From assembly GCA_964531275.1 (NCBI GenBank), contig CAZHDZ010000001.1, positions 144,945-208,944 on the forward strand: a stretch of DNA of 64,000 nucleotides. The letters are read 5' to 3'. How positions within the stretch are numbered: position 1 is the first letter of the stretch; each line of letters begins with the position of its first letter. The notes under the pieces are model-generated. The model was not told where the DNA came from, made no database searches, and was given only the letters and a program-made list of their open reading frames with translations. Origin of the DNA: an uncultured Gammaproteobacteria bacterium (GTDB taxonomy: Bacteria; Patescibacteriota; Microgenomatia; Levybacterales; GWA1-39-11). Shown here in pieces: positions 1-60,899 of the stretch. The translations under genes were made by a program, and so were the position numbers.

Positions 1-451
1 CTCCACTCACATTGGACTTGATGAAGTTGATTCTGGTCAATTTGATAAAGAGGAAAGTATATCCTTTGCAACTGGAGCCTGCCTTTTGTTAAAGCGTGAT
101 GTTATAGATGATTTAGGTCTTTTTGACGAGAGATACTTCTTATACTATGAAGACGCTGATTTAAGCACGAAACTTATTAAAAATGGATATAAGCTGTTAT
201 ATATACCAAAAGGGATTGTTTGGCATAATAACGCAGGTTCTTCTGGTTCGGGGTCGGCTCTTCACGATTACTATTTAACCCGCAACAAGCTAATTTTTGG
301 TATGAAATATGCAAGTCCCAAAGTAAAAATTTTGCTTATGAAAGAGGCAGCAAGAATATTACTGAGTGGGCGAGAATGGCAAAAAAACGCAGTGAAGGAT
401 TATATTATTCGCAAGCTTGGAAAAGGAAGTTATGCGCCTAAAAAAGCATGA
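1..451 (+). CDS. Glycosyltransferase family 2, C-terminal part (5'-truncated by the window edge; the reading frame is open from nt 2)
   Basis: The in-frame translation from nt 2 reads ...SFATGACLLLKRDVIDDLGLFDERYFLYYEDADLS..., which is the classic GT2 C-terminal catalytic region (acceptor loop plus the ED motif). The stop overlaps the next gene's start (ATGA). Confidence 0.75.
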   Translation, partial: STHIGLDEVDSGQFDKEESISFATGACLLLKRDVIDDLGLFDERYFLYYEDADLSTKLIKNGYKLLYIPKGIVWHNNAGSSGSGSALHDYYLTRNKLIFGMKYASPKVKILLMKEAARILLSGREWQKNAVKDYIIRKLGKGSYAPKKA

Positions 452-2094
452 AAAATAAATTGTTATTTCTGGTCATCTTCTTAGGTTTACTTCCGTTATT
501 TAATCTTCTAACTCCTGGACTTCCAATAACACACGATGGAACTGATCACGTAGCTCGCATTGCAAATTTTTATACAGGTCTTTCAGATGGGGTACTATTC
601 CCTAGATGGGGTGGGAATTTGAACTGGGGTTATGGTCATCCCGTTATGATGTTTTTGTATCCATTTTCATCTTATTTGGCTTCCTTTTTTCATTTAGTAG
701 GATTCACATTTGTAGATTCACTGAAAATATTATTTGCATTAGGATTTGTCGCAAGCGGAATAACAATGTATTTATGGGTAAAAGAACAATTCGGAGAAAA
801 ATACGCTGTGGTGAGCGCAGTAATTTATATGTACGCTCCTTATAGGTTTGTAGATCTCTATGTGAGGGGTGCAATAGGAGAGCATATGGCATTTATTTTT
901 CCGCCGCTAATTTTATATTTTGCATATAGATATTTTCAGGACAAACAATATGTGTGTCCGTCGCTTATTGGTATAAGCATATCTTTTGGCCTATTACTAC
1001 TTGCCCATAATGCGATTAGTCTAATGTTCTTTCCTGTATTTTTTCTGTACGTTCTATTTTTGGGGTTAAGTCAAAAAAAATATAAGAAGTTCGTTTTTAT
1101 TGGCCTATCATTTTTGATTGGGTTTTTACTTTCTTCTTTTTTTGTTATTCCAGCTTTCTTAGAAGGTAAATTTACCTTGCGAGATATTGTAACTGGAGAG
1201 GAGTATAAGGATCGATTCATCACGAATCCGCTTTCCTTATTGTATGGAGGATGGAATTATGGAATTACGGGTCAATTTACTACACAAATTGGGTTAGTAA
1301 ATATATTAGGATTGATACTTTCTCCGATATTCTTTTTAAGAAGTAAATCAAAAGAAATGCGAATATTCTTTGGCATTATATTGTTATTGATAGCTTCCTC
1401 GTTATTTCTGACAATTTCATATTCGAATTTTATTTATGATTTAATAACCACATTTAAGAAGTTCCAGTTTCCATGGAGGTTCTTGAGTCTATCTGTATTC
1501 TTAACTGCCGTTCTAACACCAGCAGTTCTTCTTACCATCAAAGACAAAAAGCTACAAAAAATACTCATGGTTTTACTGATACTTATTGCCATTATTCCTA
1601 CCGCTACATATTGGAGAGCAAAGGAGTATAAGACAATTCCAGACTCTTTCTATGAAGGCATATACTACGGTACAACAGACACCGGAGAAAGCGCCCCCAT
1701 ATGGTCAGTAAGATTTATGGAAAGGGTTCCGACTGCACAATCCGAAATTATTGAAGGGAGTGGAAGCATAAAGACAATTAATAGATCGTCTATAGTCCAT
1801 GAATATGAAATAGAAGCCTTCACAAAGTTAAGAGTGAGGGAAAATACGCTATATTTTCCGGGATGGAGCGTGCTTGATAACGGAAAAAAATTAGAAATTG
1901 AATTCCAGGACCCATCGAATAGAGGGCTTATAACGTATTATCTAGAACCTGGCACTCATCAGATAAAGATTGTATTCTTAGATACAAAATTGAGGTCATT
2001 TGCCAATGCACTTTCGATACTTTCCTTAGTAAGTATTATCGGTATGTGCATTTATTTTATTTATCAAAAGTATGGCGCAAGCAAGAAAAAATAA
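448..2094 (+). CDS. Polytopic membrane glycosyltransferase-like protein (GT-C fold), YfhO-like, with an extracytoplasmic C-terminal domain and a C-terminal TM anchor
   Basis: 548 aa with more than 10 predicted TM helices. The C-terminus (YFPGWSVLDNGKK...LEPGTHQIKIVF plus a hydrophobic tail) matches the C-terminal motif shared by the YfhO-like paralogs at 2072, 6542, 37827 and 41462. It is ATGA-coupled to the upstream GT2. Confidence 0.55.
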   Translation: MKNKLLFLVIFLGLLPLFNLLTPGLPITHDGTDHVARIANFYTGLSDGVLFPRWGGNLNWGYGHPVMMFLYPFSSYLASFFHLVGFTFVDSLKILFALGFVASGITMYLWVKEQFGEKYAVVSAVIYMYAPYRFVDLYVRGAIGEHMAFIFPPLILYFAYRYFQDKQYVCPSLIGISISFGLLLLAHNAISLMFFPVFFLYVLFLGLSQKKYKKFVFIGLSFLIGFLLSSFFVIPAFLEGKFTLRDIVTGEEYKDRFITNPLSLLYGGWNYGITGQFTTQIGLVNILGLILSPIFFLRSKSKEMRIFFGIILLLIASSLFLTISYSNFIYDLITTFKKFQFPWRFLSLSVFLTAVLTPAVLLTIKDKKLQKILMVLLILIAIIPTATYWRAKEYKTIPDSFYEGIYYGTTDTGESAPIWSVRFMERVPTAQSEIIEGSGSIKTINRSSIVHEYEIEAFTKLRVRENTLYFPGWSVLDNGKKLEIEFQDPSNRGLITYYLEPGTHQIKIVFLDTKLRSFANALSILSLVSIIGMCIYFIYQKYGASKKK

Positions 2095-4423
2095 CCATTT
2101 CTTATCAGAGTACCTAAAAATGTTAAGAGCTTTTAAATATTTCATTCTGATATTTATAGCTTGGGGGATATTCTCTTCTCCCTTTCTTTTCTTAGGCAAA
2201 ACTCCTTTCCCCTCTGATTATCAAGTAAATTTTTTTCAGCCTTGGACTCAATACCCAGGGATGGCAGGTCCCGTAAAGAACAATGCACAGCCTGATATTG
2301 TTGGTCAAATTTATCCATGGAGGTATTTTGCAATCGATCAACTAAAACATGGTTCAGTGCCATTCTGGAATCCATATAGTTTTGCGGGAACGCCCCATCT
2401 AGCAAATTATCAGTCCGCTGTTCTTTCTTTTTACAATATTTTTTTCCTACTTCCCATAAAATTTATAACTGCGTGGGGAGTGCTCGTATTGCTACAACCA
2501 CTTCTTGCGGGTATATTTACCTATCTTTTTGCAAGAACCCAAAAAATATCAGAGTTAGGTAGTCTACAAGCTGCCATCTCCTTTATGTTTTGCGGCTTTA
2601 TCGTTACATGGATGGGCTATGCAACCTTAGCCTATGCCATACTCCCATTGCCGTTAGCATTTTTTGCTATTGAGAAATTTGTTGGTTCTCAAAGACATAG
2701 GTACGCGATTCTATTATCATTTTGCATTCCGCTCTCTTTTTTTAGCGGTCATTTTCAAACAAGCCTGTACTTTTTAGGTGGGGTAATATTTTATCTAATT
2801 TTTAACTCTATCGTATCGAAAGAGAAAAAGAGATACCTTCATTTATTTGTATATATATTTTTTGGTATTTTATTATGTGCACCACAGGTATTGCCTTCCA
2901 TAGAGTTTTACACCCAAAGCGTGCGAAGCGGATTATTCCAAAAATTTGAGGCAATTCCATGGGGATATTTGCCGACATTTATCGCACCTGATTACTATGG
3001 CAACCCAGTTACAAGAAATGACTGGTTTGGCCATTACGCAGAGTGGAATGGTTATTCAGGCGCAATTACAATTCTTTTGGCATTAGGATCAGCTTTTGTT
3101 GTCAGGAATAAAAAAGTCATATTTTTTGTTTTCTTGCTTATTTTGTCTTTGCTTCTTGCATATGATACACCCCTTTTAACGTTGTTGGTCAATCTAAAAG
3201 TGCCTGTTCTTTCAACGAGTGCAGCAAGTAGGATTGTGGTTTTATTTAGTTTTTCAGTAGCTATATTAAGTGGTTTTGGAATCGATGCGATTACAACAGC
3301 ACTTTCTAAAAGAAGTAAAAAGGTGATCTTGATTGCATCTATTTTTCTTTGTGTATTATTGCTAGTTGCTGTTTTTCCTTTTCTTGGTGTGTTGCCAACA
3401 GATAAAGCTCTAATTGCAAAGAAAAATATGATACTGCCTGTCGGCATTTCAGTATTTGCTATTGTGCTTTTAGCTTTTGCCTATCTTAAAAATACAGGCA
3501 AGATATTTAGAATTCTTCTCATGGGTGTTGTTATTTTATCTCTATTAGAGATGCTACGATTCTCTACCAAATGGCAATCTTTCAATGATACAAAGCTGGC
3601 TTACGTGTCTGTACCTATTACAAAATTTTATAACTCAATGAATCACTACGATCGAGCTATTGGACTTTCAGGGGGAGAAGATGCAGTTTATTATAAAGTA
3701 CCTATTTTAAGAGGGTACGACCCTCTGTACATTGAGCGATATGGAGAGTATGTTGGTTATGTTGCTTATGGAAAGTTGCAGCCACCAGAAAGATCAGTAG
3801 TGAATTTTCCCATAGCTTCAGATAGAACTGCACAAGCTATCTCATTTTTAGGAGTAAAAACTGTTGTCCATAAAATATCTGATGGAACATTCCCATGGGC
3901 ATTTCCATTCGATAAGTATCCACTTCAGCAATTTACAAAAGTATATGAAGATTCAGCATATAGAGTCTTTAGGAATAATAGTGCCCAGGACAAAGTATTT
4001 GTCGTTAATGATGTAAAAATTGTAAAAGAAAAGCAAAAGGCTTTAGACCTTTTATTTTCCTCTGATACAAAAAATACGGCTGTAGTTTCAGAAGAAATTG
4101 GACAAATTGATGCAGCTTCATTGTCATCAGCTAAAGTCGAAAAATATGAACCCAACAGAATAGAAATAAAAGCAAAATCTACGGGAAATAGTTTGCTAGT
4201 ACTTACCGATAATTATTATCCAGGCTGGAAGGCAACGGTTAATGGTATTTCTTCAAAAATTTATATAACTAATTACTCTTTTAGGGGGGTAGTAATACCA
4301 GAAGGTGAAAGTAAGGTCATCTTTTCTTACTTGCCTGAAAGCTTCATGATTGGGGTCTATGTATCTCTTATCGGATTAATGGGTATAATAATTCTTGGAA
4401 TACTGCGGATATTTAAAAAATGA
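2072..4423 (+). CDS. YfhO-family membrane glycosyltransferase-like protein
   Basis: 783 aa. The N-terminal loop reads QPWTQYPG...YPWRYFAIDQLKHGSVPFWNPYSFAGTPHLANYQS, a YfhO-type WNPY..G.P motif. It has many TM helices. The C-terminus reads TDNYYPGWKATVNG...FRGVVIPEGESKVIFSY plus a TM anchor. Confidence 0.7.
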   Translation: MAQARKNNHFLSEYLKMLRAFKYFILIFIAWGIFSSPFLFLGKTPFPSDYQVNFFQPWTQYPGMAGPVKNNAQPDIVGQIYPWRYFAIDQLKHGSVPFWNPYSFAGTPHLANYQSAVLSFYNIFFLLPIKFITAWGVLVLLQPLLAGIFTYLFARTQKISELGSLQAAISFMFCGFIVTWMGYATLAYAILPLPLAFFAIEKFVGSQRHRYAILLSFCIPLSFFSGHFQTSLYFLGGVIFYLIFNSIVSKEKKRYLHLFVYIFFGILLCAPQVLPSIEFYTQSVRSGLFQKFEAIPWGYLPTFIAPDYYGNPVTRNDWFGHYAEWNGYSGAITILLALGSAFVVRNKKVIFFVFLLILSLLLAYDTPLLTLLVNLKVPVLSTSAASRIVVLFSFSVAILSGFGIDAITTALSKRSKKVILIASIFLCVLLLVAVFPFLGVLPTDKALIAKKNMILPVGISVFAIVLLAFAYLKNTGKIFRILLMGVVILSLLEMLRFSTKWQSFNDTKLAYVSVPITKFYNSMNHYDRAIGLSGGEDAVYYKVPILRGYDPLYIERYGEYVGYVAYGKLQPPERSVVNFPIASDRTAQAISFLGVKTVVHKISDGTFPWAFPFDKYPLQQFTKVYEDSAYRVFRNNSAQDKVFVVNDVKIVKEKQKALDLLFSSDTKNTAVVSEEIGQIDAASLSSAKVEKYEPNRIEIKAKSTGNSLLVLTDNYYPGWKATVNGISSKIYITNYSFRGVVIPEGESKVIFSYLPESFMIGVYVSLIGLMGIIILGILRIFKK

Positions 4424-5175
4424 ACAATTTAACAGTAATAATTATCTCAAAAAATGACGAAGAAGTTCTTCCTGAAGCCATAGCCTCTGCAAAAGGTTTT
4501 GGGGAGATAGTAGTAATTGATGCAAGCAACACAGATGATACTCAGCAATTATGCATGAAGCTTAAAGTAAAATGTGTGAGGCATACTTTCAAAGATTTTG
4601 CCGATCAAAGAAATTTTGGTATGTACCATGCATTTAACGAGTGGGTGCTTTTTCTTGACTCTGATGAGAGACTGACTGATCCATTTAAGAAAGAGGTACT
4701 ATCCGTTATCAAGCAATATAATCCTGATAGTGAGATAGCTGGACATTTTATTCATAGAAAGACATTTTTTTATGGAAAAGATTGGAATTTTAGTGATCGC
4801 GTACAGAGACTTTTTTATAGAAAGAAGTTTATCGAATGGGAAGGCGTTGTCCATGAAACCCCAAAAGTAAATGGCAAATTAGGACAGATCGAGGCTCCCG
4901 TTCTTCATTTTACACACAGGCATTTATCTCAAATGGTAAAAAAAACAAACGAATGGTCTTTATATGAAGCAAAATTGAGGATCACCGCACAACATCCTAG
5001 ACTTGCGCCATGGCGCTTCCTAAGAGTGATGGGAAGTGAATTCATAAATTCTTATGTTAAAAATAAGGGCTATAAAAACGGAACACACGGGCTTATTGAA
5101 GGAATTTATCAGTCTTTTTCTATATTTATAACGTATGCAAAGCTTTGGGAACTCCAGCAACAAAAGAAGATTTAG
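4420..5175 (+). CDS. Glycosyltransferase family 2 (WaaE/KdtX-like small GT2)
   Basis: The N-terminus is TVIIISKNDEEVLPEAIASAKGFGEIVVIDASNTDDT, and LDSDE serves as the DxD motif. It is a paralog of the ORF at 21416..22195. Confidence 0.8.
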   Translation: MNNLTVIIISKNDEEVLPEAIASAKGFGEIVVIDASNTDDTQQLCMKLKVKCVRHTFKDFADQRNFGMYHAFNEWVLFLDSDERLTDPFKKEVLSVIKQYNPDSEIAGHFIHRKTFFYGKDWNFSDRVQRLFYRKKFIEWEGVVHETPKVNGKLGQIEAPVLHFTHRHLSQMVKKTNEWSLYEAKLRITAQHPRLAPWRFLRVMGSEFINSYVKNKGYKNGTHGLIEGIYQSFSIFITYAKLWELQQQKKI

Positions 5176-5417
5176 TTTTTTCTAAAATTTAACCACGAAG
5201 AGATTTCCGCAAGTGTCAGTCTTTTCTTAGCAAATTTGAAAAGATAAAGAATTTCAACAATTCCAAATTCGTTAATAGGGATTAATACAAATAGCACAAT
5301 AAACCAGTTACGCTGCTTTCCTTGGGATGCTCTCCAAAGTGCAAACCCTTTTATCGAAAGTTGTATAACAGAAATTATAATAATAAGTGTAAGACTTAAT
5401 GGATCCGGTGTTTTCAT
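5172..5417 (-). CDS. Small hydrophobic protein (2 predicted TM helices), hypothetical
   Basis: An 81-aa minus-strand ORF fills the otherwise empty 308-bp gap between two + strand genes. It is hydrophobic (IIIISVIQLSIKGFALW...FIVLFVLIPINEFGIVEILYLF). No clear SD sequence is present. Confidence 0.35.
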   Translation of the reverse strand: MKTPDPLSLTLIIIISVIQLSIKGFALWRASQGKQRNWFIVLFVLIPINEFGIVEILYLFKFAKKRLTLAEISSWLNFRKN

Positions 5418-5483: not shown

Positions 5484-6548
5484 ATGAATATAGGAATTTA
5501 TTCGCCGTATTTAACGACATTAACAGGTGGAGAGAAGTATATATTTACGGCTGCGTCCTGTCTTGCATCTGAGCATAAAGTGTCAATTTTTTGGGATGAC
5601 CCTGATATATTGGAGAAGGCTTCAAGAAAATTTGATCTGGATCTTTCAAAAGTTACCGTTGTCCCTAGTTTATTTTCAGAAAAGACCTCTTTTTTTAAAA
5701 GATTTTTTTCTACGTTCAAATACGACCGTTTGTTGTACCTTTCAGATGGTAGTATCCCAATTGTTCCTTGCCGACTTCTTATACATTTTCAATTTCCTGT
5801 AGAGTGGCTAGATACAAACAGCTTTATTTTTCTTTTTAAAAAGTCGAGGATTTCCAAGATAATATGCAACTCTCATTTCACAAAGCACTTTATTGACAAA
5901 AAATTTAATACTGAAAGTTTTGTGCTGTATCCCCCAGCCTCCACAAATAAAGAAGAAATTGCAGAAAAAGAAAAAATCATACTTACCGTAGGAAGATTTA
6001 GTATGCTTCCGAACGGGACAGATTTTAAAAAACTCTCCTCACTTGTTGAGTCCTTTAAGAAATTTCAGAAAAAAAGACTGAAGGGATGGAAAATGGCCAT
6101 TGTTACAAGTGTTTCTGACGACTCGCTGGAAGCATACAATCAATTCGAGTCAAGCATCAAGAGTTCTTACATAACAGTATATAAAAATGCAGAACACCAA
6201 AAAATTGTTGAGTTGTATAAAAAAGCAAGTATTTATTGGCATGCATCTGGGTTTGGAGAAGACTTGCAGAAGTACCCAGAAAGAGCAGAACATTTCGGTA
6301 TTTCAACCGTTGAGGCGATGTCGTTTGGCGCAGTCCCTATTGTAATTAATTCAGGAGGTCAACCTGAGATTGTGAAGAATAAAGAAAATGGATTTCTATG
6401 GAATGACCAAGAAGAGCTTATAAATCAAACACATAAAGTAGCAGTAGATCAAGATCTGTATAAAAAAATTCAAGAGAGTGCGATTGAGTCTTCACAAAGA
6501 TTTACCAAAGAAAGATTTTGCGAAGAGCTTAGTCATCTCATATGGTAG
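5484..6548 (+). CDS. Glycosyltransferase family 4 (GT-B, retaining)
   Basis: The C-terminal domain motif is EHFGISTVEAMSFGAVPIVINSGGQPEIVKNKENGFL (E-x7-E). A good RBS (AAGGA) lies 8 nt upstream of the ATG. Confidence 0.8.
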   Translation: MNIGIYSPYLTTLTGGEKYIFTAASCLASEHKVSIFWDDPDILEKASRKFDLDLSKVTVVPSLFSEKTSFFKRFFSTFKYDRLLYLSDGSIPIVPCRLLIHFQFPVEWLDTNSFIFLFKKSRISKIICNSHFTKHFIDKKFNTESFVLYPPASTNKEEIAEKEKIILTVGRFSMLPNGTDFKKLSSLVESFKKFQKKRLKGWKMAIVTSVSDDSLEAYNQFESSIKSSYITVYKNAEHQKIVELYKKASIYWHASGFGEDLQKYPERAEHFGISTVEAMSFGAVPIVINSGGQPEIVKNKENGFLWNDQEELINQTHKVAVDQDLYKKIQESAIESSQRFTKERFCEELSHLIW

Positions 6549-8772: not shown

Positions 8773-9705
8773 ATGGAAGTTGATATTGTAATACCAAACT
8801 ATAACGGAGCTCATTTATTTGAAAAAAACCTACCCAAGGTTCTAGAGGCTCACGATGGGTATAAGGGCAAAATTATTGTTGTTGATGATGGTTCAAAAAA
8901 AGAGGACAAGCAAAGACTTAGGGAAGTTATAGCAGTGATAAAAAGTAATAAGCTAATTCTAGTAGAACATCATCTCAACAAAGGCTTTTCATCAGCCATA
9001 AATACTGGAGTGCATAAATCCGAAGCAAAGTTTGTTGTGCTTTTGAATAGTGATGTTGTTCCTAAGAAAAATTTCCTATTAGCATTACTTGAAAAAATGA
9101 ATTCAGACTCACTGTATTTTGGTGTAGGGTGTCTCGACGAAAGCTATGAGGGTGGAAAAATTGTAAAACGGGGTCGTGGCGTTGGCTCATGGAAGAGTGG
9201 TATGGTTGTTCACAGTAAAGGAGATGAGAGTAGTGAAGAGACATTTTGGATATCTGGTGGTAGTTGTATCTTAAGGCGTGAACTATTTGTAAAACTTGGA
9301 GGGATGGATACGTTATTTAACCCATTCTATTGGGAGGATATAGATCTCTCGTATAGGGCAGTAAAATCTGGATATAAGATATCATTTGATAAGAAATCAG
9401 TTGTAGAACACTATCACAATGAGGGTGCAATAATAACAGGCTTTAAAAAAGAGCGAATAACTCGTGCTGCATATCGAAATCAGTTCATATTTATATGGAA
9501 AAATATCACATCCCCAAATCTGCTTGCAAATCATATTTTGCTTCTTCCAATTAATATGGCAAGAGCATTAAAGAGAAGTGATTTAGAATTTTTTAATGGA
9601 TTATTCCTTGCCCTGATTAAGTTACCTGCTATAATTAAAAGACGTAAGATGCAGCAGAAATTCTACCAACGTTCTGATGCCCAGCTCTTACATAGCATCA
9701 CATGA
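8773..9705 (+). CDS. Glycosyltransferase family 2
   Basis: The sequence contains VDIVIPNYNGAHLFEKNLPKVLEA...IIVVDDGSKKED and FYWEDIDLSYR. Confidence 0.8.
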   Translation: MEVDIVIPNYNGAHLFEKNLPKVLEAHDGYKGKIIVVDDGSKKEDKQRLREVIAVIKSNKLILVEHHLNKGFSSAINTGVHKSEAKFVVLLNSDVVPKKNFLLALLEKMNSDSLYFGVGCLDESYEGGKIVKRGRGVGSWKSGMVVHSKGDESSEETFWISGGSCILRRELFVKLGGMDTLFNPFYWEDIDLSYRAVKSGYKISFDKKSVVEHYHNEGAIITGFKKERITRAAYRNQFIFIWKNITSPNLLANHILLLPINMARALKRSDLEFFNGLFLALIKLPAIIKRRKMQQKFYQRSDAQLLHSIT

Positions 9706-49460: not shown

Positions 49461-49464
49461 AGCT

Positions 49465-53300: not shown

Positions 53301-53516
53301 GTGCCGCTTAAAAACGGAAATGCATGGATTTTTCCAGTGGGACTTGATGATTCTGTTTGGTTTGCTTTTAAAAATAACAATATCGTAACGCACCAGGTTG
53401 CGACCTCTGCTGAGATTCCAAAAGCAATATTTCAGACTCCAACAAGTTGGGTATTCGAGTTTCAGGAGGATGGTAGTCTTAGGAGAGTTTATTTGGAGGA
53501 AAAGCAAAATGATTAA
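50331..53516 (+). CDS. Fusion membrane protein: an N-terminal O-antigen ligase/polymerase-like (Wzy_C) module plus a C-terminal GT-C-like polytopic module
   Basis: 1061 aa. Residues 1-540 are polytopic with a periplasmic loop. The segment ...HALMAFGRNILFGSGYGSVSLAVDNNYYRMLGETGLLG... is typical of the Wzy_C family. Residues 560-1061 form a second set of about 10 TM helices with loop YFSGDDFTWFRWAAD. Confidence 0.6.
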   Translation: MKLVNKIFKNALPIITLLLLLFIPLYPKLPLIDIKNTWVYIRFEDFLVLFAIFFWFILLLRREVTLKTPLTIPILAFWIIGAIVTMHGVVIIFPTIATVFPNVALLAYLRHIEYLSVFFIAYSAVKNKKFVMASIWTVVITLLLVTLYGFGQKYLSFPAYLTMNEEYAKGIPIIISPLNRISSTFAGHYDLAAYLVLIIPILASLIFGFKSIMAKAFLAVVALLGVVLLFMTVSRVSFFVLFIALFFVLWFQKRKLVFIFLPFIIIGGLFFAVSNSSLIERFGSTVKEVDVLVDAQSGAPIGHVELQPRKYFADKTILDEKIEATPSGFLRRGRIKLEPDVPPQLSKYAIPRKIGIVQAKITSTGETLPQGSSYINLSLSPVTGRINSFFYEYPPNEATSQAQLRIVPGDYLVKRASAYDLSFTTRFQGEWPHALMAFGRNILFGSGYGSVSLAVDNNYYRMLGETGLLGTTAFLVLFVITGIYIRKMLPTTESRVIRSFAMGFGAGLIGLSLNAVLIDVFEASKVAFVLWLLTGLVIGALSLNQSRHFNTYKELLKAAYSPAAFIVYFLLLTVTIFSTTLVTYFSGDDFTWFRWAADCKLGNDCASMLSTVAHYFLNSDGFFYRPGTKTYFLLMYPLFWLNQVMYHFVSVALHFVVVILLYQLARKIFKNEILAAGSAFLFLILSSYLEVVLWVAGTGHLFNAVFILASLLLFIKWDESKNKFYLVGSLAAALLSVAFHELGIITPFLAIAYKISIAPIGLKSWLSLVRDKIYLLLFTPVILYLLIRYFSHTHWFNGDYSYNIWKFPFNAIGNSFGYALISAFGPLTYPVYEKVRDILKTNIPFALIFGITIIAVLYLVTRFVSKRLDTQSKKVIIFAILFFVVCLIPFLGLGNITFRYSYLASFGIVMILMLCVNKLYQYLFSYGRDIALFVVIVIFSVFSLVHIIQAQQTMIEWRGAGGRVEKFLNSLDSLYEDSWSHNKVDLYFTNVPLKNGNAWIFPVGLDDSVWFAFKNNNIVTHQVATSAEIPKAIFQTPTSWVFEFQEDGSLRRVYLEEKQND

Positions 53517-54981
53517 GAAAATTTCAGAGTCTAAATGGATAATAATAATGTTTTTAGTTCTGTTTACTTTTCTAGGTTTTATTTTTCGTCTATACAAATT
53601 AGACAACCCAATAGCGGATTGGCACTCGTGGAGGCAAGCAGATACAGCAGCAGTCTCAAGAAACTTTATTAAAGATGGATTTAACCCTCTTTATCCTCAA
53701 TATGATGCTTTAAATCCGCTCAATGAAATCGGACATAATCCACAAAGATACTTCTTTGCGGAATTTCCCCTATATAACATAATCACTTACTATGCGTATC
53801 TTAATTTTGGAATTGATGAACGTTATGCACGAGCAATAAGCGCAATCTTTGCATCACTCACGATCCCTGTGCTTTATCTATTGGCCTCTCGTTATTCTAA
53901 TAAACGTGTTGCCCTGGCATCTTCCTTTTTCTTTGCCGTGCTTCCTTATAACGTATATTACGGTAGGGTGATTATGGCAGATCCGTTATATATATTCTTT
54001 GGTGTATCTGCATTGTATCTTGCTTCAAAATGGATTGAGAAAAATAACATTTTTTTCATGGTACTCGCAAGTATTTCTTTTGCACTCGCCATTCTTACAA
54101 AACCCTACGCTTTAGTTCTTCTTCTTCCTCTTGCATACCTAATTATTAGAAGATGGAAGCTGAAGGCGATTACCACATGGACGATCTACATATATCTTGC
54201 GATTGCAATTATTCCTTTTCTTCTGTGGAGACATCACATCAATCAGTACCCGGAAGGCATGTTTGGTACTGAGTGGTTGTATAACCAGGGTAACATTCGT
54301 TTTACCGGTGCTTATTTTAGGTGGCTTATTTTTGAGCGTATGAACAAACTTATATTTGCAACTGGAGGGTTTGTATTGGTTTTTCTGGGAATAGTAAGAT
54401 CAACATCAAAGAAAGAAGGGTATTTTTATCTTTTATGGCTTGCTGCAATTTTAGGGTTTTTTGTCGTAATTGCACGAGGAAATGTAACACACGATTACTA
54501 TCAATTGCCTATCGTACCCATAGGATGCATTCTTATGGCATTGGGTTTCGATTACCTCATAACTCATGGACAGAGCTATGTTAATAGAGCCTTAAATATA
54601 GGTATTGCCTTGTCTTTGGTTGTACTTATGCTTGCCTTCGGCTGGTATGAGGTGAGGGGCTATTACAACATAAATCATCCAGAAATAGTTGAAGCTGGAA
54701 AGGCGGTAGACCGGTTATTGCCAAAAGACGCTATTGTTATTGCTCCCTACGATAATGATTCCGCATTTTTATACCAAACAAATAGGCATGGCTATACATT
54801 CGGAGGAGATAAGGTTGAGAAATACATGCTTGAAGGTGCTACTCATTTAGTTTCGGTTAATTTTGACGATGTAACGAATTTTTGGATGCAAAAATGCGAT
54901 ATAGTTGAAAAAACATCCTCATATGTCATTGTCGATCTTAGACTTTGCAAGCAAGATGGAAAGGTATTGTCCTCACTATGA
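53509..54981 (+). CDS. ArnT/PMT-like GT-C membrane glycosyltransferase
   Basis: The ORF track starts at 53398, which would overlap the upstream gene by 119 nt. The ATG at 53509 (MIKKISESKW...) overlaps the upstream stop in an ATGATTAA arrangement. The loop reads DWHSWRQADTAAVSRNFIKDGFNPLYPQYD. Confidence 0.65.
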   Translation: MIKKISESKWIIIMFLVLFTFLGFIFRLYKLDNPIADWHSWRQADTAAVSRNFIKDGFNPLYPQYDALNPLNEIGHNPQRYFFAEFPLYNIITYYAYLNFGIDERYARAISAIFASLTIPVLYLLASRYSNKRVALASSFFFAVLPYNVYYGRVIMADPLYIFFGVSALYLASKWIEKNNIFFMVLASISFALAILTKPYALVLLLPLAYLIIRRWKLKAITTWTIYIYLAIAIIPFLLWRHHINQYPEGMFGTEWLYNQGNIRFTGAYFRWLIFERMNKLIFATGGFVLVFLGIVRSTSKKEGYFYLLWLAAILGFFVVIARGNVTHDYYQLPIVPIGCILMALGFDYLITHGQSYVNRALNIGIALSLVVLMLAFGWYEVRGYYNINHPEIVEAGKAVDRLLPKDAIVIAPYDNDSAFLYQTNRHGYTFGGDKVEKYMLEGATHLVSVNFDDVTNFWMQKCDIVEKTSSYVIVDLRLCKQDGKVLSSL

Positions 54982-56150
54982 ACGTTTTGTTTGTAACATA
55001 TGATTTTCCTTATCCAACTAATTCAGGTGGAAAAAATAGAGCTTACCATCTAATAAAGCATACGGCATCAAAAGCTAATATTTTCCTTTTTTCTTTTGTT
55101 CGTGATGACTATAATCCTGAGCATAATGAAGAGCTGATAAAAATTGGAATAAAGGGAATAAAGGTTGTTAAGAGAAAAAAACTGTCTTCATTTTCAAATT
55201 TTCCTAAAACCCTCCTACATAATTCCTCAATATTTAAAACTTTGTATTTCAGTAAAGATATTTTGCAGGATATTGAGGATTTTATTAAAAAAGAAAAAAT
55301 TGATGTTGTCCACTTCGAATCTTCCTATACGGGCTACTACATAGGTAAAGAATTAAAAAAGCTAGGCGTAAGGCAAGTACTAGGCACCGAAAATATTGAG
55401 TTTAGGCTTTATTTTGACTACGCAAAATCCTTTAAAAAACCAATAGTAAGACCATTTATTTCTTACCAGGCAAACAGATTAAAAAATGAGGAATTGGGGA
55501 TGGTGGTTGGAGCAGACTCTGTCACAACAATAACTCAGGAGGAGGCAGACTTCTTAAAGGTTTTGACAAAAGTTACATCTTCAGTAGTTGCAAACGGAAT
55601 CGAGCCTTCCACATATTCTTATAAGTATGATAGATCAATTAAAAAAAACATTCTTTTTGTTGGGAATTTTAGTTATTTTCCAAATGTCGAAGCTGTTGAG
55701 TTTTTCTACAATGAAGCGTTCCCTAAATTGAGAGATGATATTACGCTTACTATTATTGGAAAAAATTGTAAAGACAAATTCCATTTTGAGGATAAACGCA
55801 TTATTATGAAAGATTTTGTAGAAGATATAATTACAGAATATAGAAATGCAGACGCCTTAGTATTTCCAATTCGCATTGGAGGAGGTACAAATTTTAAAGT
55901 TCTTGAGGCAATGTCTTTGGGGGTACCAATAATTGCTCAACCGGAGCGACTTTCGGGATTACGAGCAGTGCCCGGCGAACACTTTCTCAGCGCTATAACC
56001 GGTCAAGAATATGCTGAACAAATTAATGTACTATATGCGGATGGGAAATTAAGAGAGAAATTAGCGGTTAATGCAAGAACGTTAATAGATAAATATTATT
56101 CATGGGAAAAAATTGGCCAAAGCCTTCTTAACGTATGGACATCTCAATAA
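54978..56150 (+). CDS. Glycosyltransferase family 4
   Basis: The protein begins MNVLFVTYDFPYPTNSGGKNRAYHLIKH, and the C-terminal part reads FPIRIGGGTNFKVLEAMSLGVPIIAQP. The start at 54978 gives an ATGA overlap. The ORF track begins at 54945. Confidence 0.8.
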   Translation: MNVLFVTYDFPYPTNSGGKNRAYHLIKHTASKANIFLFSFVRDDYNPEHNEELIKIGIKGIKVVKRKKLSSFSNFPKTLLHNSSIFKTLYFSKDILQDIEDFIKKEKIDVVHFESSYTGYYIGKELKKLGVRQVLGTENIEFRLYFDYAKSFKKPIVRPFISYQANRLKNEELGMVVGADSVTTITQEEADFLKVLTKVTSSVVANGIEPSTYSYKYDRSIKKNILFVGNFSYFPNVEAVEFFYNEAFPKLRDDITLTIIGKNCKDKFHFEDKRIIMKDFVEDIITEYRNADALVFPIRIGGGTNFKVLEAMSLGVPIIAQPERLSGLRAVPGEHFLSAITGQEYAEQINVLYADGKLREKLAVNARTLIDKYYSWEKIGQSLLNVWTSQ

Positions 56151-57013
56151 TCATAGTTGCGTATAATTCAGAGCAAACAATCAGAGATTGCATAGATTCT
56201 GTTATTGGGACCGTAAAAAAACACAGCTTTGAAATACTAATATCGGATAATAGCCGGAACAATAATACAAAGGAATTAGTGGAAGGACATTACGGAAAAA
56301 ATGTCATTTATTTTCAAAATGAAGACAATCTAGGCTTTTCAAAAGGAAATAATAGGGCAGTTGTGAAATCAAAAGGAACGTATGTCCTTTTCTTAAACCC
56401 TGATACAAAGGCATACGCAGGAACTATTGATGGAATGCTGGATTTTATGCAGCAAAATCCTAAGTGTGGAATATCTACCTGTTTTGTCGAATTGCCAGAT
56501 GGATCTTTGGACGACTCCTCTCACCGAGGATTCCCGACGCCCTGGAGAGCACTTATGCACTTTACCGGTATGTCAAAAGTTTTTCCTGCGAGCAAGTTGT
56601 TTGGGGGATATAACTTAACATATCTTGATATAACAAAAACGCACGAAATTGAGGCAGCAGCCGGATCTTTTATGCTCGTTCCGCGTACAGTAGGAGATGA
56701 AATTGGTTGGTGGGATGAAGATTATTTTTTCTATGGTGAGGATATAGATTTTTGTTATACCGTCAAAAATCGAGGTTATGCAGTGTATTTTGTCCCTGAG
56801 TTTAGAGCTTTGCACATGAAAGGAATTTCTAGCGGGATTAAGAAAGTTTCACAAAATGTAACAAAGGCAAGTGCGGAGACCAGAAAATTTGCTACACATC
56901 ATAGATTTAGGGCAATGGAAATTTTTTACGACAAACACTACAAAGATAAATATCCATTTCTTGTAACCCTTCTCGTGAAGGCTGGGATAAAATTTAAAAG
57001 AAAGATTGCATAG
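56135..57013 (+). CDS. Glycosyltransferase family 2
   Basis: The sequence contains MDISIIIVAYNSEQTIRDCIDSV...ILISDNSRNN, NPDTK and YGEDIDFCY. Confidence 0.8.
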   Translation: MDISIIIVAYNSEQTIRDCIDSVIGTVKKHSFEILISDNSRNNNTKELVEGHYGKNVIYFQNEDNLGFSKGNNRAVVKSKGTYVLFLNPDTKAYAGTIDGMLDFMQQNPKCGISTCFVELPDGSLDDSSHRGFPTPWRALMHFTGMSKVFPASKLFGGYNLTYLDITKTHEIEAAAGSFMLVPRTVGDEIGWWDEDYFFYGEDIDFCYTVKNRGYAVYFVPEFRALHMKGISSGIKKVSQNVTKASAETRKFATHHRFRAMEIFYDKHYKDKYPFLVTLLVKAGIKFKRKIA

Positions 57014-57015: not shown

Positions 57016-58113
57016 ATGGCAAAAAAGATTGGTATAGATGGAAGGCTTTGGAATGAAAGTGGCGTTGGTCGCTACATACGTAATTTAGTTTTGGGGATTG
57101 ATGCAGCCAAGACAGAAGACTCCTATTTTATCTTCTTAACTCAGGAGACATATGGCAAAGTTATGTTCAAGAACCCTAAATTTACAAAGGTTTTATCAAA
57201 TTCTCGCTGGCATACTGTTTCAGAACAATGGAAATTTAAGGAGGAAATAGAAAGGGAGAATCTGGACCTAATGCATTTTACTTATTTTTCCTATCCTATT
57301 CTTTACAACAGACCATTTGTTATTACTATTCACGATTTGATAATTGACCATTTTCCGACTGGGGTCGCAAGTTCCCTGCCTGCACCAATTTATAAGCTAA
57401 AGCACTTCGGATACAAAAGAATAGTTGCTTCTTCGGTAAATAATGCCAAAAAAATTATTGTTCCATCTGTTGCAACAAAAGACGAGCTCATTGATCATTA
57501 CAAGGCAAAGCCTTCAAAGATTGAAGTTATATATGAAGGGTTTGATGCAGCCATTTCTGGCGGAAAAGGTGGAAAGCTTGTAACCAACAAGGATTTTATT
57601 TTATATGTTGGTAATGCGTATCCTCATAAAAACTTGTCTGTGCTCTTTAAAGCGTTTTCCAAATTAAGAAAAAACTATGATCAGATTGAGCTTGTGTGTA
57701 TCGGTCGTAAAGACTTTTTCTATGACAGAATTCAAAGTGAGGCACCAGAGGGTATTCATTTTCTGAACAATGTTGATGATGCTGCACTTTTCGACTATTA
57801 TAAGAGCGCAAGTCTCTTTGTGATGCCAAGTCTTATGGAAGGATTTGGATTGCCCCTTCTTGAAGCTATGAGTCTTTCGCTTCCTGTTATTAGTTCTGAT
57901 ACTCCTGCTCTAAGAGAAATTGGTGGGGATGCTGTCCTCTATTTTCACCCACATGATTCAGATGAGTTGGAAGAAAAGATAACTATTTTGCTTAGTGATA
58001 AGAAGCTTAGCGCAAAATTAATAGAAAATGGGCAAATGCGATCCCGCAAATTTTTGTGGCAAGAGGCAGTCAGCAAGACAATAAAAGTATATGAAAGTTG
58101 CAATAGTGTATGA
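57016..58113 (+). CDS. Glycosyltransferase family 4
   Basis: The sequence contains MAKKIGIDGRLWNESGVGRYIRNL and PSLMEGFGLPLLEAMSLSLPVISSDTPALREIGGDA. Confidence 0.8.
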   Translation: MAKKIGIDGRLWNESGVGRYIRNLVLGIDAAKTEDSYFIFLTQETYGKVMFKNPKFTKVLSNSRWHTVSEQWKFKEEIERENLDLMHFTYFSYPILYNRPFVITIHDLIIDHFPTGVASSLPAPIYKLKHFGYKRIVASSVNNAKKIIVPSVATKDELIDHYKAKPSKIEVIYEGFDAAISGGKGGKLVTNKDFILYVGNAYPHKNLSVLFKAFSKLRKNYDQIELVCIGRKDFFYDRIQSEAPEGIHFLNNVDDAALFDYYKSASLFVMPSLMEGFGLPLLEAMSLSLPVISSDTPALREIGGDAVLYFHPHDSDELEEKITILLSDKKLSAKLIENGQMRSRKFLWQEAVSKTIKVYESCNSV

Positions 58114-59176
58114 CAGGGTTAATAAGATAGGTGGAGCCGAGAGGGTTCTTGAATCTATAAAAGATCTTTTTCCTGATTCAGTGCTTTTTACCTCAGTTTT
58201 TGATAGTAAAAGAGCGCCTTGGTCGAAAAAATTCACTATCAAAACTTCATTTCTACAGCGCCTTCCTTTCCTGAAAAACCACCACGAATTAATACCATAT
58301 CTTATGCCTATGGCATTTGAATCATTCAGATTCGATGAATTTGAATTAGTTCTATCTGTGACTAGTGAAGCATCAAAAGGTGTGATTGTTCCTCCAAATG
58401 TCAACCATGTTTGCATTTGTCTAACACCAACGAGGTATTTATGGAGTGGATATGATGAGTATTTTAAAAATTCAGTGCTACGTTTTTTAGCGAAGCCTGC
58501 AATTTGGTATTTAAAAAAATGGGATATTCTTGCTTCAAAAAGGCCTGATGATATCATTGCTATATCAAAAACCGTCCAAGATCGAATTAGTAAATATTAC
58601 AAGAGAGATAGTGAAATAATCTACCCACCTTCTGATAGATTATTCAGAGACAAACATAAAGTTATTGCAATAGATGAAAAAAATTACTTTTTGGTGGTTT
58701 CTCGCTTAGTGGATTATAAAAGAGTTGATTTGGCAGTTCGTGCATGCACCAAGTTAAAATTGCCACTTGTAGTTGTAGGTGAAGGCTCAGAAATGGAACG
58801 ACTGGAGGCAATAGCCGGAGATACGATTGTATTTAAGGGAAAGGTTGACGAAGAGAATCTTATCTCCTACTACAATAATTGTCGTGCACTAATATTCCCT
58901 GGTATAGAGGATTTTGGAATAACCATGGTCGAGGTGCAATTGGCAGGAAAACCTGTTATCGCACTTAAAAAGGGTGGAGCAAGTGAAATTGTTATTGAAG
59001 GTAAAACAGGCACCTTTTTTACAAAGCAAAACGTGCAAGCTCTATGTGATGTCTTGATAAATTTTGACGACAATCGTTATAATGGGAAGGAATGTCAAAA
59101 GAATGCTAGGCGTTTTTCTGAACAAAAGTTCAGAACGAGCCTTCTTTCATTTTTAAAGAGACACAAATATATATGA
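58091..59176 (+). CDS. Glycosyltransferase family 4
   Basis: The sequence contains MKVAIVYDRVNKIGGAERVLE and FPGIEDFGITMVEVQLAGKPVIALKKGGASEIV. Confidence 0.8.
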   Translation: MKVAIVYDRVNKIGGAERVLESIKDLFPDSVLFTSVFDSKRAPWSKKFTIKTSFLQRLPFLKNHHELIPYLMPMAFESFRFDEFELVLSVTSEASKGVIVPPNVNHVCICLTPTRYLWSGYDEYFKNSVLRFLAKPAIWYLKKWDILASKRPDDIIAISKTVQDRISKYYKRDSEIIYPPSDRLFRDKHKVIAIDEKNYFLVVSRLVDYKRVDLAVRACTKLKLPLVVVGEGSEMERLEAIAGDTIVFKGKVDEENLISYYNNCRALIFPGIEDFGITMVEVQLAGKPVIALKKGGASEIVIEGKTGTFFTKQNVQALCDVLINFDDNRYNGKECQKNARRFSEQKFRTSLLSFLKRHKYI

Positions 59177-60258
59177 AGGTTGTAATTTTTGCGGGTGGTG
59201 TTGGGACACGTTTGTGGCCTTTATCTAGAAAAAGTGCTCCTAAACAGTTTGAGAAAATTGTAGGAGATCAGTCAATGCTTCAGATTGCAGTAGCGAAACT
59301 TTTTCCTGAGTTCTCTTGGAATGATATTTATATATCTACAGGGACGCATTATGAGTCAATCGTTAGGGAGCAGCTTCCACAGCTTCCTGCAGAGAATATT
59401 CTCATTGAACCTGAAATGCGTGACGTTGGTCCTGCAGTAGGTCTTGTTACAGCACTTTTTGCTAAAAGATTTCCAAATGAACCCTTTGCTATTCTTTGGG
59501 GAAGCGACCATCTTGTAAAAAACGAAGAAGAATTTAGGCGCGCACTTCGCTCTGCTGAGCAAATTGTTAATGAAAACCAAGAAACAATAGTTTTTGTGGG
59601 CCAGAAGCCACGCTTTGCAAATCAGAACTTAGGATATATTGAATTTGGAAAAGAAATTGGTACATATAATGATTTGCCCGTTTTTTCCTTTACTGGTTTT
59701 CAGTATCGTCCCCACTTATCAACGGCAGAGCGTTTTGTAAAAGATGGTCATCACGCATGGAATCTCGGTTATTTTGTTACTACTCCCCAATTTTTATGGA
59801 GCCTTTTTGAAAGATATGCAGGAGATCTACATGTTCAATTGAGACAAATTTATGATGCGTCAGACACTCCTCAATATCAAGAGGTTCTTATGAATATTTA
59901 CCCACAAATCGAGAAAATTTCTTTTGATAATGCAATATTAGAAAAGATGGATGTAAGCTATGGGCGAGTATTATCAGTTGATATAGGGTGGAGCGATATT
60001 GGTGCTTGGGAAGCGTTGAAAGAGGCGTTGAGTAATTCTCAAGAAGAAAATGTTACAAAAGGAAAGGTAATGGTTGAGGATTCTTCTGATAGCTTAGTCT
60101 TTAACTATACGAACCAACTCGTAGTTGGAATAGATCTACAAGGGTATCTTGTTATAAATACAGACGATGTTGTTCTTGTCTGTCCAAAGGATTCTGTTCC
60201 AAAAATAAAGAAGCTTGTAGAAAGTCTTTCAGGCACAGAACACGAATCCCTTACGTAG
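59173..60258 (+). CDS. manC: Mannose-1-phosphate guanylyltransferase (GDP-mannose pyrophosphorylase, no PMI domain)
   Basis: The sequence contains MKVVIFAGGVGTRLWPLSRKSAPKQF and ...GYIEFG.... It is 361 aa and nucleotidyltransferase-only. Confidence 0.8.
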   Translation: MKVVIFAGGVGTRLWPLSRKSAPKQFEKIVGDQSMLQIAVAKLFPEFSWNDIYISTGTHYESIVREQLPQLPAENILIEPEMRDVGPAVGLVTALFAKRFPNEPFAILWGSDHLVKNEEEFRRALRSAEQIVNENQETIVFVGQKPRFANQNLGYIEFGKEIGTYNDLPVFSFTGFQYRPHLSTAERFVKDGHHAWNLGYFVTTPQFLWSLFERYAGDLHVQLRQIYDASDTPQYQEVLMNIYPQIEKISFDNAILEKMDVSYGRVLSVDIGWSDIGAWEALKEALSNSQEENVTKGKVMVEDSSDSLVFNYTNQLVVGIDLQGYLVINTDDVVLVCPKDSVPKIKKLVESLSGTEHESLT

Positions 60259-60260
60259 CT

Positions 60261-60899
60261 ATGATGTATGATGTATCAAAACGCCTGCTTGATATTATCA
60301 TTTCGATAATTGCTCTCATTATTTTTTCCCCAATAATTTTACTTACTGCAATAGCAATTAAACTTAATACGAAAGGCCCGCTTTTAGCAGATACACCTCC
60401 TCGTGTAGGTGAGGGTGGTCATTCTTTTAGAATGTATAAATTCCGTTCAATGGTGGCAAATGCTCATGGAATGCTAACTTCTGACCCTAAGTTTAAAAGC
60501 CTTTTGGACGAATATAAGAAGGGTGGATACAAACTAAAGGGAGATCCACGCATAACCTCCGTTGGTAAATTTATTAGAAAGTATTCTCTTGATGAGATCC
60601 CTCAGTTTGTAAATGTTCTAAGGGGAGATATGAGTGTTGTGGGGCCACGCGCTTATTATCAAGATGAATTACGAGATCAGCAAAAAAAATATCCCCACAC
60701 AAGAGATGCTGTGAAAGTTGTGTTGTCTGTTAAGCCAGGAATTACCGGTGTGTGGCAGGTGTCTGGGAGAAGCGATATTAACTTTGATAAAAGAATTCAA
60801 CTCGATGCACATTATGCCAAAAAGAGATCTATTGTCTATGACGTCCTTTTGATTTTAAAAACCCCACAAGCAATGTTCTCTGGCAAAGGCGCAATGTGA
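60261..60899 (+). CDS. Polyprenyl-phosphate sugar phosphotransferase (small bacterial sugar transferase, PglC/WecP/WbaP-C-terminal type), the initiating enzyme
   Basis: It has a single N-terminal TM helix (LLDIIISIIALIIFSPIILL) and the conserved motifs YKFRSM and DEIPQFVNVLRGDMSVVGPR. Confidence 0.85.
   Translation: MMYDVSKRLLDIIISIIALIIFSPIILLTAIAIKLNTKGPLLADTPPRVGEGGHSFRMYKFRSMVANAHGMLTSDPKFKSLLDEYKKGGYKLKGDPRITSVGKFIRKYSLDEIPQFVNVLRGDMSVVGPRAYYQDELRDQQKKYPHTRDAVKVVLSVKPGITGVWQVSGRSDINFDKRIQLDAHYAKKRSIVYDVLLILKTPQAMFSGKGAM

Follow-up and report, generated by a model that had tools for sequence, protein, structure and literature searches.

The 64,000-nucleotide stretch of contig CAZHDZ010000001.1 analysed here (the whole of which is termed the window) is largely taken up by a glycosylation block, at positions 448-60899 (60.45 kb), of 45 large open reading frames (ORFs), 42 of them on the + strand. 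About 34 of the 45 genes encode glycosyltransferases, roughly one per 1.8 kb, and the 17 supported genes for polytopic membrane glycosyltransferases of the GT-C type occupy 52.6% of the 60.45 kb. Judged from its genes, the block is probably (we would put the probability at roughly 0.65) a conserved machinery for lipid-linked assembly of a surface heteroglycan, which would then be extensively elaborated by GT-C enzymes outside the membrane. The proposal builds on gene content, protein folds, paralogy and conservation of gene order, from which the donors, the order of the steps and the acceptor are predicted.

The organisation is operon-like, in that 36 of the 45 gene junctions overlap or are <=10 nt apart and 43 of 46 large ORFs (the total when orf1, a fragment at the window start, is counted) are co-directional; the coding fraction of 448-60899 is 97.9%. 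GC content is uniform, at 34-39% throughout the window, and GC skew is positive in every sub-window. Given that about 1-2% of genes in a typical bacterial genome are for glycosyltransferases, chance is not a plausible explanation for about 34 in 45. The original prediction, made from the DNA alone, was of about 17 GT-C, nine GT2 and eight GT4 genes at one glycosyltransferase per 1.8 kb or so; these figures agree well with those obtained here, i.e. 17 supported GT-C genes and one possible one (orf10), as assigned by Pfam, paralogy and hhalign, with 8-9 GT2 and 7-8 GT4 genes or domains.

A Pfam scan of every window ORF (48 ORFs) puts ten large polytopic proteins, orf2, 3, 6, 9, 11-15 and 40, in GT-C families. 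Their genes are as follows (TM, transmembrane; aa, amino acids).

448-2094, + strand: orf2, GT-C, PTPS_related (Pfam 49.8 bits) with weak PMT_2, 10 TM helices
2072-4423, + strand: orf3, YfhO GT-C of 783 aa (Pfam YfhO 58.6 bits), 31% identical to orf6
6542-8770, + strand: orf6, YfhO GT-C (Pfam YfhO 69 bits)
10427-11662, + strand: orf9, probable GT87-like GT-C, 8 TM helices (Pfam GT87 E 2.2e-5, 24.8 bits against a cut-off of 25)
13641-21387, + strand: tandem array of five PMT_2/ArnT-like GT-C genes (Pfam PMT_2/PMT; mutual paralogy 22-34%), made up of the next five entries
13641-15263, + strand: orf11
15260-16945, + strand: orf12
16942-18471, + strand: orf13
18455-19732, + strand: orf14
19747-21387, + strand: orf15
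53398-54981, + strand: orf40, PMT/PMT_2 GT-C (Pfam PMT_2 and PMT)

The PMT_2 cut-off of 26.1 bits is exceeded by orf11, 12, 13, 15 and 40, while orf14 (25.5 bits) lies just under it and is a clear paralogue of orf13 (E 1e-12); the six PMT/ArnT-like genes initially proposed are, therefore, accounted for by orf11-15 and orf40. The five proposed YfhO-like genes fared less well, since only orf3 and orf6 pass the Pfam YfhO cut-off of 28.5 bits; it is not reached by orf30 or orf31, which, like orf2, are related to the family at the profile level only. In hhalign comparisons the orf2 family scores 97.3% against the PMT_2 family and 97.5% against the YfhO family, and the orf9 match spans positions 5-224 of the 237 in the GT87 profile. 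The GT-C complement is thus made up of six PMT_2-like proteins, two YfhO, one PTPS_related and one GT87-like, together with 7-8 in families lacking a curated model.

The latter group is drawn from eight polytopic ORFs, with 8-22 predicted TM helices, which have no Pfam match even at E<=10.

11665-13644, + strand: orf10, possible GT-C of a Pfam-less Microgenomates family, 12 TM helices (152 homologues)
29295-30797, + strand: orf23, GT-C of a new family, with an overall architecture like that of oligosaccharyltransferases (OSTs); probable start 29322, 491 aa
30800-32287, - strand: orf24, paralogue of orf23 (BLAST, 37% identity) and convergent with it
35024-37063, + strand: orf28, GT-C of a Pfam-less family with an invariant N-terminal D-E-W (hhalign against PMT_2 family 97.1%, E 5e-11)
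37827-41144, + strand: orf30, GT-C of 1105 aa (hhalign of its family against PTPS_related 97.4%, E 1.5e-11, and against YfhO 95.7%; weak MmpA match)
41462-43315, + strand: orf31, GT-C paralogous to the TM domain of orf30 (BLAST 1e-14; hhalign 97.5%; MmpA 1.2e-8)
46199-47782, - strand: orf35, GT-C of a new family with an invariant FGCFDDCFN (family alignment)
50331-53516, + strand: orf39, 1061-aa, 22-TM fusion of a weakly Wzy_C/O-antigen-ligase-like N-terminal half and an orf28-like GT-C C-terminal half

That these ORFs lack any Pfam match, that searches of PDB sequences, made with orf39 and with profiles of the orf23, orf28 and orf30 families, returned nothing meaningful, and that orf10 has no family placement would all be in keeping with many of them being transporters or other membrane proteins, in which case the GT-C count would be inflated. 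The fold evidence is, however, such that this explanation is rejected, and we regard it as very improbable. Family alignments enriched with orthologues were compared by hhalign with the Pfam-supported families of the window (A2 and A3 being the families of orf28 and orf30/31, respectively); window paralogues alone gave alignments too shallow for this purpose, which became informative once orthologues from the fetched loci were added. Profile-profile links among the new families themselves (A5-A1, A5-A4 and A2-A1) are not significant. In all supported members the first TM helix is soon followed by a motif with Asp (e.g. WDE, GDEW, GDDF, GHD, FDDC or GVDIW), which is likely of catalytic type. 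In the orf23/24 family D32 (of GVDIW) and D64 do not vary among 55 sequences, nor do D37-D38 (of FDDC) among 58 sequences of the orf35 family; hydropathy and structural models would place the Asp residues of both the orf23 and orf35 families in the first extracytoplasmic loop. High-confidence predicted structures are available for two of the five GT-C families in the block that have neither a Pfam nor an NCBIfam model, and the orf23/24 and orf35 families both manifest a GT-C fold, i.e. an N-terminal polytopic module with the conserved arrangement of the first helices.

Two of the model-less proteins are unusually large. orf30 has an N-terminal TM bundle extending to about residue 420, then a non-TM stretch of ~650 aa, which is probably extracytoplasmic, and a C-terminal TM helix (1079-1097). 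In orf39, the C-terminal half (from about residue 560 onwards) matches orf28 (BLAST 7e-8, hhalign 93%). A search for Wzy_C, one of the checks named with the original prediction, detects a signal in the N-terminal half of orf39 alone and at sub-threshold strength (E 0.0055, 16.9 bits; its orthologue 7e-5, 23.1 bits; cut-off 31.7), with an IctB match at 8e-7. The Wzy_C-like half holds a soluble insert of ~200 aa, and a 1050-aa orthologue is 71% identical.

The block is also present elsewhere. A 66-kb contig of separate sample origin (SRR27197494) carries orthologues of orf10, orf23 and orf35, and comparison with it reveals that 40 of the 41 genes from orf3 to orf43 are collinear, with 41-87% amino-acid identity (mean 65%); having been assembled independently in a different sample, the locus can be considered real. 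Proteins identical to those of the window occur on Logan contigs from SRR12762304. The only gene-content differences over ~57 kb are that the relative lacks orf13 and has an inserted AlgX/MBOAT pair, which suggests that the variable features are O-acetylation and one PMT_2 paralogue. The inserted pair, encoding AlgX-like and MBOAT (AlgI-like) proteins (L047 17685-20242), lies between the orthologues of orf28 and orf29, equivalent to ~37063-37156 in the window.

Scanning a genome collection for the orf23 family gave 40 loci, and a central ~20-kb block, orf16-orf30, recurs in the same order in many Levybacteria, with 5-6 polytopic ORFs per 21 kb. The core order is GT2, GalE, GT4, Wzx, GT2(+)GT4, DegT, GNAT, orf23, orf24, short-chain dehydrogenase/reductase (SDR), methyltransferase, GT2, orf28, methyltransferase and orf30. 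On these comparisons the block is evidently under purifying selection and a conserved trait typical of its lineage. The original prediction had considered the locus exceptional and had named its being typical of related genomes as a result that would refute it; since relatives keep the block, its uniqueness is refuted, though not the concentration of glycosyltransferases itself.

In planktonic bacteria, islands rich in glycosyltransferases are as a rule hypervariable (PMC9426551), so that the missing orf13 and inserted O-acetylation pair of the relative might be seen as marks of a strain-specific, O-antigen/capsule-type island, formed under phage pressure and through gene exchange and lacking any wider significance. 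The collinearity and sequence identity retained in a contig from a different sample, the maintenance of the orf16-orf30 core across many Levybacteria, the presence there of orf23 orthologues 57-61% identical across well over 100 clusters, and the uniform GC content all argue to the contrary; an island of this type is rejected on the synteny evidence and has, in our view, scarcely any probability.

Homologues of the window proteins are named Candidatus Levybacteria, Levyibacteriota, Patescibacteria, Roizmanbacteria and Gottesmanbacteria, supporting assignment, from sequence, of the host lineage as Levybacteria (Microgenomates, within the Candidate Phyla Radiation, CPR/Patescibacteria); together with the GC content, this fits the AT-rich, CPR-like origin proposed at the outset. 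Many Levybacteria-like contigs (L006, L008, L010 and others) are filed as 'uncultured Gammaproteobacteria bacterium'; judged by the genes they carry, and by the 51-78% identity of their proteins to those of Levybacteria, this label seems to be a placeholder or an error.

The other genes of the block encode soluble and membrane-associated glycosyltransferases, together with lipid-carrier and sugar-tailoring enzymes.

4420-5175, + strand: orf4, GT2 (Glycos_transf_2 62.7 bits)
5484-6548, + strand: orf5, GT4 (Glycos_transf_1 75 bits)
8773-9705, + strand: orf7, GT2 (Glycos_transf_2 71 bits)
9702-10430, + strand: orf8, Dpm1/AglJ/ArnC/PpgS-like GT2, candidate polyprenyl-phosphate sugar synthase (Glycos_transf_2 118.7 bits)
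21416-22195, + strand: orf16, GT2 with a C-terminal TM helix, first gene of the conserved core (Pfam; synteny)
22197-23171, + strand: orf17, UDP-glucose 4-epimerase GalE, an SDR (TIGR01179 397 bits against a cut-off of 262)
23181-24245, + strand: orf18, GT4 (Pfam)
24229-25482, + strand: orf19, Wzx/MOP-type flippase, 10 TM helices (Polysacc_synt_3 36.6 bits against a cut-off of 23)
25544-27424, + strand: orf20, GT2-GT4 fusion (Pfam), its GT2 domain an orf8 paralogue
27462-28619, + strand: orf21, PseC/ArnB-like sugar aminotransferase (DegT 439 bits; PseC 381 and ArnB 371 bits, both below cut-offs)
28616-29317, + strand: orf22, WecD-like GNAT N-acetyltransferase (Pfam, NCBIfam)
32290-33249, - strand: orf25, SDR sugar epimerase/dehydratase/reductase (Pfam, NCBIfam)
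33322-34020, + strand: orf26, class I S-adenosylmethionine (SAM) methyltransferase (Pfam)
34017-35027, + strand: orf27, GT2 with a C-terminal TM helix (Pfam)
37156-37830, + strand: orf29, class I SAM methyltransferase (Pfam)
43299-44474, + strand: orf32, RfbH-like DegT-family enzyme (Pfam, NCBIfam)
44759-45667, + strand: orf33, soluble 302-aa protein, weakly GT2/AglJ-like (E 1.5e-3 and 8e-4)
45669-46202, + strand: orf34, 177 aa, N-terminal half of a GT4 only (Pfam)
47791-48903, + strand: orf36, GT4 (Pfam)
48906-49460, + strand: orf37, hexapeptide WcaF-like O-acetyltransferase (Pfam, NCBIfam)
49435-50334, + strand: orf38, GT2 with a C-terminal TM helix (Pfam)
54945-56150, + strand: orf41, GT4 (Pfam)
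56135-57013, + strand: orf42, GT2 (Pfam)
57016-58113, + strand: orf43, GT4 (Pfam)
58091-59176, + strand: orf44, GT4 (Pfam)
59173-60258, + strand: orf45, mannose-1-phosphate guanylyltransferase ManC, without a phosphomannose isomerase domain (Pfam, NCBIfam)
60261-60899, + strand: orf46, small monotopic polyprenyl-phosphate phosphoglycosyltransferase, initiating (Bac_transf 199.9 bits; EPS_sugtrans 8e-72)

The GT2 tally of 8-9 comprises seven stand-alone genes (orf4, 7, 8, 16, 27, 38 and 42), the N-terminal domain of orf20 and the weak orf33; that for GT4, 7-8, comprises six stand-alone genes (orf5, 18, 36, 41, 43 and 44), the C-terminal domain of orf20 and the half-length orf34. In many relatives, two separate genes stand in place of orf20. 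As orf33 and orf34 are kept as separate genes in the collinear relative (77% and 59% identical, respectively), the half-GT4 orf34 is not a recent pseudogene and might work as a split enzyme. The flippase, initiating phosphotransferase, ManC and tailoring enzymes of the original prediction are all present, as orf19, orf46, orf45 and orf17/21/22/25/26/29/32/37, respectively.

Parts of two known routes are found together, i.e. a polyprenyl-diphosphate oligosaccharide route (orf46, the GT4/GT2 enzymes, Wzx and the weak Wzy_C) and a multi-component transmembrane glycosylation route. In the proposed mechanism, nucleotide sugars would first be made and tailored in the cytoplasm, with ManC yielding GDP-mannose, and with GalE, the two DegT enzymes, the WecD-like and WcaF-like acetyltransferases, the SDR and the two methyltransferases yielding N-acetylated amino-deoxy, O-acetylated and possibly methylated sugars; the presence of ManC suggests mannose as one donor. 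orf46 would then start a polyprenyl-diphosphate-linked oligosaccharide, to be extended by the soluble GT4/GT2 enzymes and translocated by the Wzx-type orf19 to the other side of the membrane, with the Wzy_C-like half of orf39 being a candidate polymerase or ligase. Alongside this, single sugars may be loaded onto polyprenyl phosphate by GT2 enzymes of the Dpm1/ArnC type (orf8 and the orf20 N-terminal domain). Finally, the 17-18 GT-C enzymes, which are predicted to use polyprenyl-phosphate or -diphosphate sugar donors, would transfer sugars from the lipid donors outside the membrane, each probably forming one linkage type. The likely product is a complex branched envelope glycopolymer, e.g. a lipoglycan or secondary wall polysaccharide; some of the enzymes may glycosylate proteins.

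The loading step has precedent in three-component systems, which combine a GT-A enzyme that charges polyprenyl phosphate with a sugar, a flippase, and a polytopic GT-C enzyme that passes the sugar on outside the membrane (PMC8035078, PMC11127046). Among NCBIfam models, orf8 best matches AglJ (1e-33), ArnC (8e-22), Dol-P-hexose transferase (4e-16) and PpgS (1.5e-15), with PgfS also among the best, every one of these being a lipid-phosphate sugar synthase, and it is 81% identical in the collinear relative. The Wzx-type gene orf19 adjoins orf20, the N-terminal GT2 domain of which is orf8-like; this arrangement is paralleled in streptococcal GacI-L, where GacK provides precedent for a Wzx-type flippase in such a system (PMC8035078). 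The available evidence is, therefore, in line with the earlier proposal of lipid-linked surface glycosylation fed in part by Dpm1-like synthases. The further proposal, that all of the GT-C enzymes are so fed, goes beyond the one clear and one probable synthase present, the 'all' being a matter of inference for 17 GT-C enzymes.

Several observations weigh against assembly of a surface heteroglycan in the manner proposed. One clear and one probable lipid-monosaccharide synthase is a small number for 17 GT-C enzymes, and orf8 lies below every NCBIfam equivalog cut-off, so that its sugar is not assigned. No match to a GtrA-type flippase is present in the window, and Pfam detects no chain-length regulator (PCP/Wzz) and no LCP or WaaL attachment enzyme among the 48 window ORFs, though these may lie elsewhere in the genome. 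The Wzy_C signal of orf39 is, as described above, below threshold. hhalign relates orf10 to PMT_2 with only 25% probability, over 408 columns; 7 of 56 of its homologues weakly match DUF6541. Finally, by Foldseek orf23 is structurally closest to enzymes with peptide acceptors (STT3, AglB, PglB and DPY19), which lends protein glycosylation some weight.

Known protein-glycosylating enzymes are found in both the PMT and the Wzy_C families. It may be, then, that the block mainly serves general glycosylation of proteins, e.g. of S-layers, pilins and secreted proteins, with orf23/24 being minimal OST-like enzymes, the relevant half of orf39 a PglL-type O-oligosaccharyltransferase, and the PMT_2 genes protein O-mannosyltransferases; pilin glycosylation has been predicted in Saccharibacteria, with no test there yet (PMC11623550). 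In favour of such a role, the top-ranked Foldseek matches of orf23 are STT3, AglB and PglB, at a TM-score of ~0.55-0.60 normalised to the query, DPY19 also being near. By contrast, known protein O-mannosylation systems need one PMT rather than six, the window has no gene for a candidate acceptor protein, and the WWDYG motif is absent from the orf23/24 family consensus; on balance a mainly protein-directed role seems unlikely. By analogy with the mycobacterial enzymes considered below, a polymer is favoured over protein as the acceptor, in view of the five tandem PMT_2 genes, the very large non-TM domains (as in orf30, 1105 aa), the module resembling Wzy_C and the presence of tailoring enzymes.

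The resemblance of the orf23/24 family to oligosaccharyltransferases is one of overall architecture. The full-length OST chains matched (STT3, AglB and PglB) run to ~700 aa or more, and in this family a WWDYG motif opens the C-terminal domain, whereas the orf23/24 proteins are of 491 aa, and WWDYG is absent from both the consensus and the invariant columns of the 55-sequence alignment. No homology to STT3 is apparent in sequence, there being no Pfam STT3 match and nothing at E<=10 in a PDB profile search. Assignment of orf23/24 as STT3/AglB/PglB oligosaccharyltransferases is consequently rejected, for want of both the motif and a sequence-level link. Distant family members have sub-threshold PMT_2 and PIG-U matches only.

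The family is a large one, with 1303 representatives of 50%-identity clusters at E<=1e-3 among 1.84 billion proteins. Orthologues of orf24 occur in Levy- and Daviesbacteria. At ~28% identity, the family is also present in cultured Desulfovibrionaceae (Solidesulfovibrio alcoholivorans DSM 5433 and Fundidesulfovibrio agrisoli), which are experimentally tractable hosts for studying its function, and in Acidobacteriota metagenome-assembled genomes. In Levybacteria, Daviesbacteria and other Microgenomates loci, genes of the family adjoin DegT and acetyltransferase genes; the DegT, GNAT and SDR genes beside orf23/24, with the orf24 family similarly placed elsewhere in Microgenomates, suggest transfer of an amino-deoxy sugar in an Arn-like manner. 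Extending this to a previously unrecognised minimal (~490 aa) GT-C class, OST/C-mannosyltransferase-like in architecture and acting on peptides, such that the supercluster would be a general CPR protein glycosylation system using amino-deoxy sugars from the adjacent DegT/acetyltransferase genes, is speculative, and we consider it decidedly unlikely.

The enzyme classes involved, and the logic of their use, are already known. The three-component systems CsbB/GtcA/YfhO, GtlA/GtlB, GacI-J-K-L, Gtr and GT136 have the YfhO and PMT_2 families in common with the block. Systems of the CsbB/GtcA/YfhO type, however, have one GT-C enzyme per module and 1-3 modules per genome, compared with 17-18 co-directional GT-C genes here; unlike them, the block lacks a GtrA-type flippase and has several uncurated GT-C families. 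With Wzx/Wzy pathways (for O-antigen, capsule and secondary cell-wall polysaccharide) it shares a Bac_transf initiator, GT2/GT4 enzymes, a MOP flippase, tailoring enzymes and, at sub-threshold strength, a Wzy_C-like domain. Unusually for loci of this kind, GT-C enzymes dominate; the weak Wzy_C-like domain forms part of a fusion with a GT-C, and the window has no chain-length regulator, export component or LCP ligase.

With regard to a polymeric product, the nearest parallel is offered by the Emb, Aft and Mpt enzymes of mycobacteria, i.e. by the mycobacterial/corynebacterial machinery for arabinogalactan, lipomannan (LM) and lipoarabinomannan (LAM), including Ppm1, PimE, MptA/B/C, EmbA-C, AftA-D and Pmt. 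The mycobacterial arabinogalactan/LM/LAM genes are scattered over a 4.4-Mb genome, whereas the block is packed into ~60 kb; moreover, unlike the mycobacterial machinery, no decaprenyl-phospho-arabinose pathway genes are seen in the window. In sequence, identity with the solved enzymes amounts to 5-14%.

What appears to be new is the scale of the system, with 17-18 GT-C genes in one co-directional CPR block, its conservation, and the five GT-C families without models, which widen the known sequence space of an enzyme class that is hard to detect. CPR bacteria have genomes of roughly 1 Mb and are believed to rely on contact of their surface with a host or partner; to our knowledge, the chemistry of their envelopes is essentially undescribed. 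A ~60-kb block would be several per cent of a ~1-Mb genome, and the devotion of more than half of it to GT-C coding sequence, together with the retention of gene order across the lineage, argues for a complex surface glycan being central to the biology of Levybacteria. As the original prediction had anticipated for such lineages, no description of this kind of system in Patescibacteria was found in the literature searched, which omits most subscription journals, nor was one found of a Wzy_C/GT-C fusion like orf39; a preprint refers to glycosylation in Saccharibacteria as "unexplored" (PMC11623550). The locus provides targets for glycoengineering, for antigen or lectin probes, and for enrichment or sorting, based on fluorescence in situ hybridization, of uncultured Levybacteria.

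The flanks of the block and its smaller ORFs are as follows.

1-451, + strand: orf1, GT2 fragment (C-terminal 150 aa) whose gene runs off the window start, frame open from base 2 (weak Glyco_trans_2_3 match; BLAST to orf27/38/42)
5172-5417, - strand: small membrane protein DUF5652, 81 aa (Pfam 55.5 bits)
41141-41458, + strand: 105-aa hydrophobic, apparently multi-TM ORF between orf30 and orf31, overlapping the orf30 stop by 4 nt
44477-44689, + strand: 70-aa hydrophobic ORF of uncertain gene status, in the 284-nt gap between orf32 and orf33
61054-63018, + strand: orf47, DUF4012 protein, 654 aa, one N-terminal TM helix (Pfam)
63025-63558, + strand: orf48, RecO, housekeeping (Pfam)

Although the cluster was originally taken to extend from position 448, it continues upstream of the window start, since orf1 represents just the 3' end of a further GT2 gene; thus, the cluster is larger than the window and its 5' boundary lies outside it. 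The RecO gene, orf48, marks the 3' end, and the DUF4012 gene, orf47, borders the cluster, directly after the initiating transferase orf46 and before RecO. No tRNA genes or Rfam families are present in the window.

The DUF5652 gene opposes the otherwise co-directional block and has an orthologue at the equivalent site in the relative (L046 3500-3754). Neither the 105-aa nor the 70-aa ORF has a significant Pfam match, so that a GtrA- or SMR-like flippase role, considered for both, is unsupported. A 106-aa counterpart of the 105-aa ORF is found at the equivalent place in the relative (L048 16275-16595); by inference alone, the product could be an accessory protein or subunit, or a small flippase. 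Some start codons are uncertain, with those of orf23 likely at 29322 (491 aa in databases), orf35 likely at 47746 (515 aa) and orf40 likely near 53506 (its orthologue being of 489 aa). For orf10, the copy at NCBI is annotated at 546 aa, which is 113 aa short of the full 659 aa that its homologues span.

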